A stretch of DNA of 64,000 bases from a phage: sequence record PZ809289.1. One strand, given 5' to 3'. Both the position numbers and the translations under genes were made by a program. The stretch's first letter is position 1. Each line of letters opens with the position of its first letter. The notes under the pieces were generated by a model. The model did not search any database. It was given only the letters and a program-made list of their open reading frames with translations, and had not been told where the DNA came from. Below, one piece after another: positions 46,078-61,091 of this stretch.

Positions 46078-46139
46078 GTGTTTACATACCACAAGGAACG
46101 TGGTAGTATCCTTCCTATCAACTACATGAGGAAATTACA

Positions 46140-46376
46140 ATGGAAGCTTTAATCGTTAGTGCTGGTGTTTTAGGATTCGGTTCTCTGGTTATTATGTTCA
46201 TCGGTTACTTTTTACCATGGATTCTGGCTCTTCTGCGAGGCACTCGTAGTAATGTAGGAATTTTCTTCCTTAATCTCCTGTTAGGCTGGACGATGATTGG
46301 TTGGGTAGTGGCTTTAATCTGGGCTATCGTCGCTGAACGTAAATCAAACGCACAAATCATTATTGTTAAACAATGA
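46140..46376 (+). CDS. imm: superinfection immunity protein Imm-like
   Basis: 78 aa, two transmembrane helices, GWTMIGWVVALIWA motif; directly downstream of gene 43. Confidence 0.7.
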   Translation: MEALIVSAGVLGFGSLVIMFIGYFLPWILALLRGTRSNVGIFFLNLLLGWTMIGWVVALIWAIVAERKSNAQIIIVKQ

Positions 46377-46399
46377 AAATAATTGTTTTATTTCTTATA

Positions 46400-46510
46400 A
46401 TGGCTGCCTTTACCGTTTATTGGGCAGTGGCAATTCCGCCAATGATTCCGACACTCATCATTGGATGGATTATTCTTATAGCACAAATTAAGTATAACTG
46501 TTTTAATTGA
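46400..46510 (+). CDS. small hydrophobic peptide (36 aa)
   Basis: Not in track; single transmembrane helix; weak SD. Confidence 0.25.
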   Translation: MAAFTVYWAVAIPPMIPTLIIGWIILIAQIKYNCFN

Positions 46511-46517
46511 GGATATT

Positions 46518-47018
46518 ATGAAAAAGTTAATTATCGCAATGAGTATGCTCCTATCAGGTTGCGCGGTCCAATATGGTGATACAGTTTCGGCCGATGAAGT
46601 TGGTAAAGCTCGTATCGCAGCTGAACAGAAACAATTCGATGGCGAAATGAAATTCCGTGCAGGTTCTGGACTTGTGTACACCCGAGCTAATAATCAATGC
46701 GGTAATAACTGTGCAAAATATGCTCAACAAGAAATCGAATTCCAACGTGAACAAGAGTCCAAGCGTGAAGCGGTACTAGCCAAACACCAGGCAGAAATGA
46801 AGCGTCAAGATGATTTGTACAAAAAGCAGAAACTGTATGCGATGTGCGTAAACCATATCAATCTACAGATTTCCATCCACGAGGCTCGTTATTACGAAAT
46901 GCTCGAAACCGAGAGCTTCGGTAAAGCTCGTGATTATAAGAAACAAATCGATAAGCTCAAGACCAAAGTACCGGCGGCAATAGAACAGTGTATTGAAATC
47001 GGTAAAGATAAGATTTAA
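46518..47018 (+). CDS. lipoprotein
   Basis: Signal peptide with lipobox LLSGC; charged coiled-coil mature region. Confidence 0.6.
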   Translation: MKKLIIAMSMLLSGCAVQYGDTVSADEVGKARIAAEQKQFDGEMKFRAGSGLVYTRANNQCGNNCAKYAQQEIEFQREQESKREAVLAKHQAEMKRQDDLYKKQKLYAMCVNHINLQISIHEARYYEMLETESFGKARDYKKQIDKLKTKVPAAIEQCIEIGKDKI

Positions 47019-47078
47019 GCAATACCAATTTATTAAAAATAGTGTATAATGTACCTACATTCACTTGAGGAACAGATA

Positions 47079-48752
47079 ATGAAAAAGGTTGTTATTTTAG
47101 GCGCGGGTCTTGGCTCACGGTTGTATCCAATTACCAACGAAATCCCGAAGGTACTGGTTAACTACAAACAACATACTGTATTAAAACATTTGTATGATTT
47201 GTATAGTAATCAATCAGATGAAATTATTCTGGTTATTCACAGCAAATTTAACGACCTCGTTAAAGGCTATATTAAATCCATTAACATGATTAATAGTGAT
47301 AAGCCTAAATTCACTATTCGTAACGTTGATGTTGCCAATGGTTCGGCTCATGCTATCGATTGCATTGCTGAAGATATCATTGGGCACAATGTCTTGTTTA
47401 ACTGGTGTGATATTATTCCTGAAGGTCATAAAGTTGAGTGGGATACCGACTACTGTTATACCTATGGGACCGACTGTCGTTTTACATTTGAAGAACCGTA
47501 CTTGCGTGAAATTGGTACCGGTGGTGGCGTAGTTGGCTTGTATCAGGTGGCTAATTGGACAGGTTTCGACCGTTCTAATTATGGTGAAGACCTTGCTGAC
47601 AACCTGGATTCAATGGTCCATTTGACTGAACGTAAGTTAGACTTTGTAGTTGATGTTGGTGACAAACTGAAACTGGCTAAGGCCCATGAAGATTCTGAAA
47701 TTAACCGTGAATTTAATAAATTAGAGTTCACTGAGAATCTAGCTATTAAAGTACCTACAAACGAATTAGGTAAAGAAATCCAATCTAAAGAAATCAATTG
47801 GTACAATTCTATTGATTCTGAATTCGTTCCTAGCATTGTAGACTTTGCTCCAGGTGAATTCATTAAAATGGAACGTATCTTTGGTCGAACCATGGCAGAT
47901 GCCTACCGGTTTATGTCTAAAGAAACTAAAGTCCTAATGGTTTATAAGGTTATTAGTGCATTACGTTCGTTCGGTGGAACTATCGATAATCCGTCCGATG
48001 AGCAATGGTATTCTGATGTTAAGAAAGAAGTATTGGACAAGGTCCTTATTCGTAATGCTTCTATTGCCGGATTGATTGAAGGCTTTGCTCCACAGGGTAT
48101 TACCCATGTTAACGACTTCAAGGTAGGCGACCCAGAAAAACTTCTTCGTCACGCCTTAGAAATTCTGTCTGAACATAAAGAACCGTACCAACTTATTCAT
48201 GGCGACCCGCACTACAGTAATATTATGTTGTCGGACGAAGGTAATATTAAAATCATCGACCCACGTGGTTATTTTGGTAATAGTTCTAAAGGCCCTGCGA
48301 TTTATGATGAAGCTAAGGTGCTTTATTCTATCGATGGTTATGACAAATTTAACTCTGACCCTCTATGGGGTGGCTTAACTCGTAACGGAACTCGTGTATT
48401 CGTTGATATTGAAAAGGTTATGCCTTTAGATGATATTCCGATGTGTACATTTAAGCACAAGCTCTGGATTGCTGTTATCTGGATGGCATTGGCAGGTTAC
48501 TTTAAAAATAACCCTCTGAAAGCTCTGGGCGCTTATTACAATGGGCTATATCAACTGAGTGTGCTGCTGAAGCGGCATCCTCGTAAGCGTAAGCTTATCA
48601 CAGGTGAATTCGTTGATGAAGTTCGCGACCCTATCACGGCTCAAATTATCACTCGTTGTCCTGATAAGTGGGTTTTGCTTGACCAGGAAACTGGTGTAAA
48701 ATATAAACCTACAGGTTCTACCGAACTCCACAAACAATGGAAGAAAATTTAA
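47079..48752 (+). CDS. bifunctional sugar-1-phosphate nucleotidyltransferase / APH-fold kinase
   Basis: N-terminal ILGAGLGSRLYPITNEIPKVLV (RmlA/GlmU-type); C-terminal LIHGDPHYSNIML and IKIIDPRG (Brenner motif); ATG 47079 after GAGGAACAG. Confidence 0.7.
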   Translation: MKKVVILGAGLGSRLYPITNEIPKVLVNYKQHTVLKHLYDLYSNQSDEIILVIHSKFNDLVKGYIKSINMINSDKPKFTIRNVDVANGSAHAIDCIAEDIIGHNVLFNWCDIIPEGHKVEWDTDYCYTYGTDCRFTFEEPYLREIGTGGGVVGLYQVANWTGFDRSNYGEDLADNLDSMVHLTERKLDFVVDVGDKLKLAKAHEDSEINREFNKLEFTENLAIKVPTNELGKEIQSKEINWYNSIDSEFVPSIVDFAPGEFIKMERIFGRTMADAYRFMSKETKVLMVYKVISALRSFGGTIDNPSDEQWYSDVKKEVLDKVLIRNASIAGLIEGFAPQGITHVNDFKVGDPEKLLRHALEILSEHKEPYQLIHGDPHYSNIMLSDEGNIKIIDPRGYFGNSSKGPAIYDEAKVLYSIDGYDKFNSDPLWGGLTRNGTRVFVDIEKVMPLDDIPMCTFKHKLWIAVIWMALAGYFKNNPLKALGAYYNGLYQLSVLLKRHPRKRKLITGEFVDEVRDPITAQIITRCPDKWVLLDQETGVKYKPTGSTELHKQWKKI

Positions 48753-49111
48753 TGCATCTGTGTTTTGATATCGATAATACCATTACTCACTGGCAAGATG
48801 ACCGTGATTACGAAAACTTTAAACCGGACACCGAAATGGTGTCCATGATTAATAAGCTTTATGATGAAGGGTACGAGATTACCTTGTTCACTGCCCGTGG
48901 TATGACTTCATGCGGCCCGGGTCGAATCTTGGTTGAAGTAGTTCCTGCATTAGTTAAGAACCTTGAAAAGATTGGATTGAAATATCACAATCTGCTTACA
49001 CATAAGCCGAGTTATACTTTTATCATCGATGACCGAGCAATCCGTCCTGACCACTTTAAAGAAATGGTTCGTGAAGGAACTCTTGAAACCTATAAGGCAT
49101 ATCATCCGTGA
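48752..49111 (+). CDS. HAD-superfamily phosphatase
   Basis: Motif I FDIDNTIT (DxDxT) at N-terminus, downstream TARG and IIDD; TAATG overlap. Confidence 0.65.
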   Translation: MHLCFDIDNTITHWQDDRDYENFKPDTEMVSMINKLYDEGYEITLFTARGMTSCGPGRILVEVVPALVKNLEKIGLKYHNLLTHKPSYTFIIDDRAIRPDHFKEMVREGTLETYKAYHP

Positions 49112-49644
49112 AACCAAAAATCATTGTTATCGACGGCCCGGATAATTCCGGGAAGTCTACTTTAATTGAATCACTTTTATCTGATAAGAAATATCGTCTT
49201 ATTGATTTCCCTAAAAAGATTAATGGCAAATGCATTTCATTAGGGACTGATAATGACAAGGCTTTAGTCGAGACGTTGTATAAGTTTTTAGACCCTAATT
49301 TTGTCTACATCTTAGACCGTGGGTATCCTAGTAATATTGTTTACTCTGGATTCCTTCGTGGTGAAATGGACCCTTATGTAGAACTGGAAGATTGGAAAGG
49401 GTTTAAATCTGAATTCAATATTATTGAGGTTATTTTAACCCGTAATCCACTGGATAAAGACTTTGAAGATGACCTTATTAAATTAACCAAAGACGAGTTC
49501 AACCTAACTATCCGGCAATATGAAACATGTTTTGAAAACGTGTTTAAAATCTTAAATCACGACGGCCATAATAACTTGCTTAACGTCGATATGGTAGAAT
49601 TAAAACGTCTGAATGAATATATTGAAAATAAGGTGAATAAATGA
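49108..49644 (+). CDS. P-loop nucleotide kinase (dNMP/thymidylate-kinase-like)
   Basis: Walker A IVIDGPDNSGKST, DRG-Y motif; ATGA overlap. Confidence 0.6.
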   Translation: MKPKIIVIDGPDNSGKSTLIESLLSDKKYRLIDFPKKINGKCISLGTDNDKALVETLYKFLDPNFVYILDRGYPSNIVYSGFLRGEMDPYVELEDWKGFKSEFNIIEVILTRNPLDKDFEDDLIKLTKDEFNLTIRQYETCFENVFKILNHDGHNNLLNVDMVELKRLNEYIENKVNK

Positions 49645-50339
49645 AACACATTACCGCTGTTAGTTTTGAAAACGCGTTTAAGCAAATGAACGAAGAAATC
49701 CTGGAAGCCCCACAGTTTGCAGTTGATTCTCGTATCGGCCGTTGTTATGAAATTGGTTCTGCTTCGGTAGAAGTACTGGATGCAAGCACCTATAAATTCA
49801 CCGACCCTCGTATTAATCGTATCAACTATGATTATGCCGAATCTTTCTGGAAGTTTATGATTTCTGGTGGTACTGACGCCGCCGAAGCATTTAAGGAATA
49901 CCCTAATGTTGCTAAGTTCATTGATAAGCCGAAAAGTGACGTATTGCCTGCAAACTTCAACACTTTCTATGGACCTAGAATTGTGGCCCAACTCCCAGCC
50001 TTACTTAAAGAGCTTAAAGAGAAGCCTAACTCAAGACGAGTTGTGTTCCAAATTCTCCAAGAACAAGACCAAGCCCTCCTTGATTCTGACGAATCCTTAG
50101 AATATCCATGTACTGATTCAGTGACATATTATATTCGTGATGGACGTCTTTATGCACATACCCATATGCGTTCACAGAACTGTGCTATTGTTATGCAGCT
50201 GGATTTCTATCTGCAGGGTAAACTGATGGCCTTTATTGCTGAACAGTGTGGTGTTGGTCTGGGTACGTATTCCCATACTATGGTTAGTGCACACGTATTT
50301 GAACGTGATTTTGACTACGTTCGAGGATTCCTGAAATGA
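49641..50339 (+). CDS. 42: pyrimidine hydroxymethylase of thymidylate-synthase family (gp42-like)
   Basis: CTDSVTYYIRDGRLYAHTHMRSQNCAIVMQLDFY aligns with the T4 gp42 active-site region; ATGA overlap. Confidence 0.75.
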   Translation: MKHITAVSFENAFKQMNEEILEAPQFAVDSRIGRCYEIGSASVEVLDASTYKFTDPRINRINYDYAESFWKFMISGGTDAAEAFKEYPNVAKFIDKPKSDVLPANFNTFYGPRIVAQLPALLKELKEKPNSRRVVFQILQEQDQALLDSDESLEYPCTDSVTYYIRDGRLYAHTHMRSQNCAIVMQLDFYLQGKLMAFIAEQCGVGLGTYSHTMVSAHVFERDFDYVRGFLK

Positions 50340-60467: not shown

Positions 60468-61037
60468 ATGAACATCGAACAAAAATGTCTTTATCAAGAC
60501 CGAATCAATTCCAAATTTTCAAAATCTGAACAAGCCTTGTTAGAGAAATGTCTGGATGCCAAAAAAGACCCTAACTTCCATTACGACCTTGACAAACTGG
60601 TTCGTAAGCATGTTACTTCGGCCGTTCCTGTAGAGCTTTATCGCGGGATTACCGCCAGAGAACTTGAGCAATTAGAGCTCCTTTCAGTAGGATGTCAATG
60701 GTCTCCTGGTCGAGTTACTTCTTTTAGTACACAATACTCTCAGGCTCGTCAGTTTGCAGGGGCATGGGAATATGGAACCAAAACCATTTTAAGTCTCAGG
60801 AATGCACCGTTCATTTTCGACTACTACAATCATGCTATCGACCTTGTTCTTGCTGGGAATGTAGACGCCCTTGAAATTGATGAAACTCGTATTGATCTCT
60901 ATGATATGGTCGAAACTGAATGTGAGTTCATGGTCTCTAGCCAATCGCGATTTGAGATTGTTGCAATCGAAACCGTCAAAAGAGACCCATATGAAATCGA
61001 GTACAAAACAATTCATTTAAAAATGTTGGATTTTTAG
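60468..61037 (+). CDS. ADP-ribosyltransferase (ModA/ModB family)
   Basis: R-S-EXE triad: LYRG, SFSTQ, ECEF; 189 aa; SD GGAGG. Confidence 0.75.
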   Translation: MNIEQKCLYQDRINSKFSKSEQALLEKCLDAKKDPNFHYDLDKLVRKHVTSAVPVELYRGITARELEQLELLSVGCQWSPGRVTSFSTQYSQARQFAGAWEYGTKTILSLRNAPFIFDYYNHAIDLVLAGNVDALEIDETRIDLYDMVETECEFMVSSQSRFEIVAIETVKRDPYEIEYKTIHLKMLDF

Positions 61038-61091
61038 TTTACAGGCAAGGAAGCTTGTGGTACTATCTTTCTATCAACTGAGGAGAATAAT

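Follow-up and report, generated by a model that had tools for sequence, protein, structure and literature searches.

What does a small lipoprotein do beside the superinfection-immunity gene of a T4-like phage? The question is raised by a 64,000-nucleotide stretch of phage DNA (sequence record PZ809289.1), here called the window at its full length, in which the immunity gene imm is followed by a gene for a small hydrophobic peptide and by a gene for a 166-residue protein with a lipobox. For decades, superinfection exclusion by T4 has been explained by two proteins, Imm and Spackle. Imm blocks the transfer of DNA across the inner membrane. An earlier reading of the window, made from the letters alone (the sequence-only reading), had put forward the lipoprotein gene and imm as a candidate superinfection-exclusion module. 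We found that the lipoprotein is very probably (about 0.9) an early outer-membrane lipoprotein of the T4 Imm.1 family. Its gene association, timing and evolutionary pattern suggest a function in exclusion or envelope protection, a tentative assignment to which we give a rough probability of 0.4.

Relation of the lipoprotein to T4 Imm.1

The window was assigned to Dhakavirus, a genus of T4-like phages (Straboviridae, Tevenvirinae), because its positions 46080-47048 are 95-99% identical to many Dhakavirus genomes, among them JS98, JS10, Bp7, QL01 and WG01. Over the same positions, two phages are 100% identical to the window: Shigella phage PSD9 and the Escherichia phage vB_EcoM-E33. When the encoded lipoprotein was compared with profile libraries, it matched phrog_1754 (unknown function) over residues 1-163 with an expect value (E) of 3.5e-52. 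T4 Imm.1 matched the same family over its full length (residues 1-124, E 6e-43). The T4 protein has 125 residues and the lipobox LAGC, and is the founder of Pfam DUF5481 (PF17578). On these matches, the window gene is predicted to represent, in Dhakavirus, the lipoprotein family of T4 Imm.1, of which phrog_1754 is the whole and DUF5481 the T4 branch.

The likeness to T4 Imm.1 extends beyond the shared family profile to the lipobox, to the pattern C-x-x-Q-G-x-V-V-x-x-S/D-E/D-V-G-K right behind the lipid-bearing cysteine, to an aromatic beta-hairpin motif with an invariant tyrosine, and to two invariant cysteines in a helical head. The genes likewise have in common an upstream early promoter and a slot between gene 43 and gene 42, beside imm. 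By contrast, the helix and charged stalk of the window protein are about 40 residues longer (166 residues in all versus 125), sequence identity to T4 Imm.1 is about 22%, and the order is imm.1, imm, 42.1 in T4 versus imm, 42.1, lipoprotein in the window. Among 45 aligned members of the family, Gly14, Tyr54, Cys110 and Cys158 were invariant, and the lipid-bearing Cys15 was found in 43.

Several results weigh against the assignment and set its limits. With E allowed up to 0.1, the window lipoprotein failed to hit PF17578, its pairwise BLASTP comparison with T4 Imm.1 was not significant, and homology to the T4 protein would consequently rest on profiles, intermediate sequences and synteny. Since T4 Imm.1 scored 5e-72 against the Pfam model whereas the window protein did not hit it, we place the latter in a sister subfamily outside that model. 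Homology between this long subfamily and the DUF5481 subfamily was tested by hhalign and by hidden Markov model (HMM) searches with the signal peptides removed. The mature parts aligned with a probability of 87% (E 4e-6), confidently only over the first 17 residues and at full length only at low stringency; the match to T4 Imm.1 falls in the N-terminal module of the mature protein. An HMM built from the long subfamily alone scored T4 Imm.1 at 1e-4 and two further proteins, P0032 and P0033, at about 1e-7, in a single-sequence search space. P0032 and P0033 are intermediates, with an N-terminus like that of the long subfamily and a T4-like C-terminus. The lipoprotein is thus very probably a sister-subfamily member of a known, uncharacterised family and no new kind of element.

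Product names within the family are misleading and include 'iduronate sulfatase' (imm.1 in the T4 RefSeq record NC_000866; locus L002, 2637-3014), 'immunity protein', 'DNA endonuclease IV' and 'capsid and scaffold protein'; arbitrary names were also noted in records MT682711, OM386655 and PP693301. We suggest 'Imm.1-like lipoprotein' for this gene and 'gp42.1-like membrane peptide' for the small open reading frame (ORF) that precedes it.

Signal peptide and predicted architecture

A lipoprotein signal was defined by a positive n-region, a hydrophobic core of 7-22 residues and a lipobox of the form [LVI][ASTVI][GAS]C. All three were present in the window protein, as the n-region MKK, the core LIIAMSMLL and the lipobox L-S-G-C15, with Ala at position +2. 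The gene is preceded by the Shine-Dalgarno sequence GAGGA at 46509-46513. The lipobox reported by the sequence-only reading was read directly. It is no chance feature, because it is kept in 43 of the 45 family members and Asp at position +2 occurs in none of them (the avoidance rule of the E. coli Lol system, used here as a sequence rule only). The charged helical mature domain described in the same reading was borne out as well, by a content of 32% charged residues and by mainly helical AlphaFold2 models.

Two such models, with a mean predicted local distance difference test score (pLDDT) of 71 and 79, agree in layout. A flexible tether is followed by a helix (residues 25-39), a beta-hairpin (42-56), a long helix (63-131) and two shorter helices (134-149 and 151-162). 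The short helices pack back onto the long one with pLDDT of 95-98, and values exceed 90 across about residues 80-160. The conserved N-terminal module comprises the tether, the motif G-D-x-V-x-A-x-E-V-G-K-x-R, the first helix, the hairpin with the invariant Tyr54 and the sequence NQCGxNC. The predicted architecture is that of a tether, a small alpha/beta module, a charged helical stalk and a three-helix head (Table 1).

In the 45-sequence alignment, cysteines other than the lipid-bearing one always came in pairs, two or four to a protein: the C110/C158 pair was constant, and the CxxxC pair was present as both or none. The two members that lack the lipobox cysteine, P0017 and P0026 from the exhaustive protein search, have an ordinary signal peptide of the signal-peptidase-I type instead and may be soluble periplasmic versions. 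Because the cysteines are paired, Asp is never found at +2 and two members carry ordinary signal peptides, we infer that the protein faces the periplasm in an oxidised state and that in most members of the family it is anchored to the outer membrane, on the inner leaflet.

No functional analogue emerged from fold or profile searches of the lipoprotein, and its comparison with NCBIfam and PADLOC gave no meaningful matches. A 25-residue match to a plant LysM receptor kinase (PDB 5ls2, E 0.004) was rejected as it was not reproduced. There was no Pfam LysM hit, and hhalign against a hand-typed alignment of LysM sequences gave a probability of 0.2%.

An exchangeable C-terminal head

A metagenomic relative, P0004, was found to be 92-100% identical to the window lipoprotein over residues 1-99 and 24% identical over residues 100-166. 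Its contig (L011; Logan SRR25011185, Dhakavirus) has the gene order of the window. At the nucleotide level, the two are 44-47% identical within 46800-47000 and 94-100% identical on either side. Thus, a patch of 200 bp replaces exactly the head of the lipoprotein, with length, reading frame and both cysteines kept. Within one head type the ratio of nonsynonymous to synonymous substitution rates (dN/dS) was 0.05, and divergence between types was saturated. No close relative of the P0004 head was found among the collected sequences. The pattern is that of alternative, individually constrained alleles swapped by recombination, as for specificity determinants. This cassette-like exchange of the head is a new detail.

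Early promoter and conservation of the locus

The gap between gene 43 and imm holds an exact match to the T4-type early-promoter consensus. Two matches were found in the window against 0.02 expected by chance, and the one ahead of imm was also recovered by a sigma-70 scan. The other perfect match, GTTTAC-N14-GTGG-TACTAT, lies at 61037-61066. A relaxed form of the pattern had a single occurrence in each of 12 related loci, always at the corresponding place, ahead of imm or of the lipoprotein gene, whichever came first. No terminator was predicted inside the unit from imm through the peptide to the lipoprotein. Early promoter, imm, gp42.1 homologue and lipoprotein gene are accordingly predicted to form one compact transcription unit.

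Homologues of the lipoprotein were detected by tblastn in 127 phage records, all T4-like and of genera including Dhakavirus, Gaprivervirus, Mosugukvirus, Kanagawavirus, Winklervirus and Gelderlandvirus; the hits always lay near map position 25 kb, just past gene 43. A HMMER scan of 1.84 billion representative proteins returned 30 clusters at 50% identity. Three of these, the cadherin/immunoglobulin-repeat giants P0035, P0039 and P0040, were set aside as repeat or bias artefacts and are no relatives. The family is small and confined to T4-like phages (about 780 records).

Within these phages, the lipoprotein gene stands beside imm or gene 43 in nine genera of the Tevenvirinae and adjoins imm in Tequatro-, Mosig-, Gelderland-, Jiaoda-, Dhaka- and Gaprivervirus. 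The order is 43 - imm.1 - imm - 42.1 - 42 in Tequatrovirus, 43 - lipoprotein - imm - 42 in Gelderlandvirus and Jiaodavirus, and 43 - imm - 42.1 - lipoprotein in Dhakavirus and Gaprivervirus. In Kanagawavirus, Winklervirus and Mosugukvirus it is 43 - lipoprotein - arabinose-5-phosphate isomerase - 42.1, followed by the remaining genes of the modification cassette. Salmonella phage Melville, with 43, lipoprotein, imm and 42 in succession, carries the lipoprotein gene exactly in the T4 imm.1 slot, and Klebsiella phage phiKp_22 (Jiaodavirus) is arranged in the same way. In VR7 (Gaprivervirus; locus L005, 3610-5924), imm, 42.1 and the lipoprotein gene are followed directly by uvsX; neither a homologue of gene 42 (deoxycytidylate hydroxymethylase) nor a modification cassette was found in its 43-uvsX interval.

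In the RB69-like genus Mosigvirus, the pair has gone from the gene 43 locus and the order is early promoter - imm.1 - imm - spackle. In Escherichia phage SA35RD, imm.1, imm and spackle are contiguous (locus L009, 2937-3707), each behind an early-promoter-like site. In this phage it is the region from dmd to the primase gene, not the 43-42 interval, that gathers all exclusion-associated genes. Among the associations that argue for a shared role, the strongest is the joint relocation of imm.1 and imm to a position next to spackle. Linkage to imm, the early promoter and this joint move all favour the candidate exclusion module of the sequence-only reading; an obligatory link to imm is not upheld. 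Enterobacter phage vB_EclM_CIP9 (Kanagawavirus, NC_048849.1) has the lipoprotein, spackle and an unannotated gp42.1 homologue (locus L004, 7135-7275), and lacks a recognisable imm, as set out below. A 79-residue ORF ahead of its gene 42 was considered as a displaced Imm and ruled out by sequence.

A possible function in superinfection exclusion

The lipoprotein is probably synthesised in the opening minutes of infection. Sec would export it and, once lipidated, Lol would deliver it to the outer membrane, where it would sit in the inner leaflet and project into the periplasm, its head locked by a Cys110-Cys158 disulfide. In the infected cell it may be a periplasmic accessory to Imm and Spackle in an early programme of envelope protection and superinfection exclusion. 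Its conserved N-terminal module would bind an envelope component that does not vary, whereas the variable head would meet a partner that does; a tail-tip or ejection protein of related phages on their way in is the most plausible candidate. Action inside the periplasm is favoured because two members carry no lipid anchor and have an ordinary signal peptide in its place. It is doubtful that Imm.1-type lipoproteins, tethered to the outer membrane and spanning part of the periplasm, are a third, hitherto unrecognised exclusion determinant of the T-even phages; in that reading the disulfide-locked head would recognise the tail-tip or ejection proteins of incoming relatives, and its type would set which competitors are excluded, as a 'self/non-self' module comparable to immunity types.

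With T4 Imm (PF14373) the lipoprotein has in common its place in one early transcription unit and its location in the envelope. The sequences are unrelated: Imm is an inner-membrane protein with two hydrophobic segments, whereas the lipoprotein is predicted to be soluble, helical and lipid-anchored. Imm homologues occur in 1665 phage records, sipho- and mycobacteriophages included, whereas the lipoprotein family is found only in T4-like phages. T4 Spackle (Sp, gp61.3) is closer in kind, as it is early, exported, periplasmic, small, helical and related to exclusion, and its gene adjoins imm.1 and imm in Mosigvirus. Spackle is not lipidated; stalk and swappable head are features of the window lipoprotein, and no sequence or fold match was detected between the two proteins. 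Spackle acts by inhibition of the gp5 tail lysozyme; its structure and mechanism are described in PMC7677548.

Several observations speak against a role in exclusion. No Imm homologue was found in the whole 175-kb genome of CIP9 (best HMM E 0.09, versus 1.7e-39 for the window control), and therefore the lipoprotein cannot depend strictly on Imm and has an Imm-independent role. In work ascribed to Lu and Henning in 1989, plasmid-borne T4 imm alone is said to exclude T4; if so, Imm can act without Imm.1. The variability of the head could result from recombination combined with a relaxed, loose constraint on the helical bundle, rather than from partner specificity. In PMC5885020, the exclusion role of Imm.1 is described as presumed and yet to be proven. 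That passing mention was the one return of a literature search, which found no study of Imm.1 or DUF5481 and no experiment on any member of the lipoprotein family.

Some of the same observations would suit a general envelope stabiliser or lysis-timing accessory, an anchored helical protein that reinforces or monitors the outer membrane, peptidoglycan or periplasm with no specific recognition of phages. Such a protein could make cells resistant to lysis from without, help to sustain lysis inhibition or lower vesiculation. A lipid anchor joined to a long charged helix and a small head is what such a protein might look like. Early expression (as judged from the promoter), presence in the Imm-less CIP9 genome, and the fact that, of the three small genes, the one for the lipoprotein is retained most widely, agree with it too. 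We nevertheless think this explanation unlikely, as the exchange of the head as a cassette, under purifying selection within each type, is unexpected of a purely structural tether, and no similarity was found to Lpp, Pal, OmpA-like or LysM peptidoglycan-binding domains. Moreover, these phages have separate genes for spanins and lysis inhibition: Rz-like spanin genes lie elsewhere in CIP9. The window protein itself does not resemble an o-spanin of the Rz1 or PseT.2 type, having 166 residues, a helical fold, an early promoter and a place beside imm; such o-spanins are small, proline-rich, late-expressed lipoproteins whose genes pair with an i-spanin gene or lie within it.

A function in counter-defence or competition, in which the head neutralises a variable host factor of the envelope (a periplasmic nuclease or protease, the entry route of a bacteriocin or toxin, or a defence system), appears improbable. 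A variable head on a conserved scaffold would fit an arms race with a variable partner, and the early promoter and the independence from Imm in CIP9 also speak for this function. The similarity of the signal-peptide region to a model named 'T6SS immunity periplasmic lipoprotein' (T6SS, type VI secretion system) is sub-threshold (E 0.09) and carries essentially no weight. Models of known inhibitors in PADLOC, NCBIfam and Pfam gave no match, and the near-invariance of Imm.1 in about 500 Tequatrovirus genomes from diverse hosts also counts against it. The lasting linkage to imm and the joint relocation beside sp point to exclusion instead.

The sequence-only reading had pointed out that phage lipoproteins next to immunity genes often block receptors or the entry of DNA. 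Masking of the phage's own receptor, by which further adsorption would be blocked and progeny spared from binding to debris, seems very improbable here, because Imm.1 is near-invariant in phages with different receptors and some family members have no membrane anchor. Tequatroviruses use OmpC, Tsx, FadL/OmpF or OmpA as receptors. Identity among Imm.1 proteins is 95% or higher in 502 of 657 records, nearly all of them Tequatroviruses. In favour of masking, variability of the head could track that of a receptor. Classical work on T4 places exclusion at the step of DNA entry and not at adsorption, which is a further argument against masking. The known examples are Llp of T5 and Cor of T1 and phi80, phage-encoded lipoproteins of the outer membrane that bring about exclusion when expressed early in infection or by a prophage (PMC9586334). 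The window protein resembles them in being an early phage lipoprotein with a predicted outer-membrane location. By contrast, no similarity of sequence or fold to Llp or Cor was detected, and two members of the Imm.1 family lack the lipid anchor. A Foldseek search of the PDB returned no Llp structure among its matches, the presence of Llp in the searched copy of the library being unconfirmed.

A functional part in the downstream cytosine-arabinosylation operon is effectively refuted by the distribution of the family. In favour of such a part, the gene lies directly ahead of the operon and no terminator is predicted to separate the two; its counterparts in Kanagawa-, Winkler- and Mosugukvirus even overlap the start of the arabinose-5-phosphate isomerase gene. 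The family occurs, however, in T4, whose DNA carries glucosylated hydroxymethylcytosine, in Melville and phiKp_22, which do not have this cassette, and in VR7, where gene 42 and a cassette are both missing from the 43-uvsX interval; the T4 and VR7 cases place the lipoprotein outside the DNA-modification pathway. Moreover, nucleotide metabolism takes place in the cytoplasm, out of reach of an exported lipoprotein, and the word 'lipoprotein' appears nowhere in PMC13326640.

Neighbouring genes of the locus

The protein upstream of the lipoprotein and its small neighbour had been read as Imm-like, and this was confirmed by two profile matches: one to Imm_superinfect (Pfam PF14373) at E 5e-18, which passes the curated cut-off, and one to phrog_1039 ('immunity to superinfection') at E 3e-32. 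Its identity to T4 Imm is 43%, and a GAGGA sequence lies 7 nucleotides 5' of its start.

A small hydrophobic peptide had also been proposed, as 36 residues starting at 46400. The peptide stands; its start does not. The conserved ORF encodes 45 residues, and its ATG overlaps the imm stop codon (ATGA). The start at 46400 was rejected, having no Shine-Dalgarno sequence, and homologues keep an N-terminal MK... start that overlaps the imm stop; related phages annotate the 138-nucleotide version. The 45-residue peptide matched phrog_3610 (E 1.7e-21), and T4 ORF 42.1 belongs to the same family (E 1.2e-25). The T4 ORF encodes 49 residues and lies directly 3' of imm with the identical ATGA overlap. The two products are of one length class, and both have a hydrophobic segment followed by P-x-M-I-P-T-L-I-x-G-W...K-Y-x-C-F/I-N. 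The 45-residue peptide is thus a predicted homologue of T4 gp42.1. The feature table of the T4 RefSeq record (NC_000866) does not list ORF 42.1. Further homologues were found by tblastn in Gapriver-, Kanagawa-, Winkler- and Mosugukvirus loci and were absent from the examined imm loci of Gelderland-, Jiaoda- and Mosigvirus.

Purifying selection acts on all three small genes, with dN/dS of 0-0.12 for imm, 0.17-0.34 for the 45-residue peptide and 0.10-0.21 for the N-terminal part of the lipoprotein. Minus-strand ORFs of the region (e.g., 46388-46681, 97 residues) were dismissed because conservation and dN/dS track the plus-strand frames.

The sequence-only reading had placed the lipoprotein gene immediately upstream of a DNA-modification operon, and the next genes do match the cytosine arabinosylation/5-hydroxycytosine cluster of PMC13326640, a recent characterisation in RB69 and DLP3 that was extended by inference to Dhakaviruses. 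The mechanically assigned start of the first of these ORFs, 47049, is probably wrong, as relatives use the ATG equivalent to 47079.

Table 1. Features of the imm-lipoprotein locus in the 64,000-nucleotide window.
Feature	Position	Strand	Remarks
DNA polymerase gene 43	ends 46077	+	
Gap between gene 43 and imm			62 nucleotides; holds the early promoter
T4-type early promoter	46080-46109	+	GTTTAC-N14-GTGG-TAGTAT; in the gap between gene 43 and imm; exact consensus match
imm	46140-46376	+	78 residues; inner-membrane superinfection-immunity protein with two hydrophobic segments
gp42.1 homologue (predicted)	46373-46510	+	45-residue hydrophobic membrane peptide
Lipoprotein gene	46518-47018	+	166 residues; stop codon 47016-47018
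Lipoprotein signal peptide and lipobox (MKKLIIAMSMLLSG-C15)	46518-46562	+	Cys15 codon 46560-46562; read from sequence
Conserved N-terminal module, residues 16-62	46563-46703	+	alignments and conservation analysis; AlphaFold2 pLDDT 53-71 (moderate)
Charged helical stalk, residues 63-99	46704-46814	+	41% D/E/K/R by composition; predicted first half of helix 63-131 in both models
C-terminal helical head (predicted), residues 100-166	46815-47018	+	pLDDT 95-98; Cys110 and Cys158 invariant
Downstream cluster	47079-50339	+	nucleotidyltransferase and kinase fusion (phrog_4098), HAD-like protein, deoxynucleoside monophosphate kinase-like protein, 232-residue thymidylate-synthase homologue

Significance

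The analysis ties a Dhakavirus gene to T4 imm.1, defines a signature for the family and directs attention to a conserved neighbour of imm. Should the lipoprotein make no contribution to exclusion, it would be an ordinary conserved accessory gene. If it does contribute, it would matter for cocktails that mix related T-even phages, and for how the block of DNA entry is understood.

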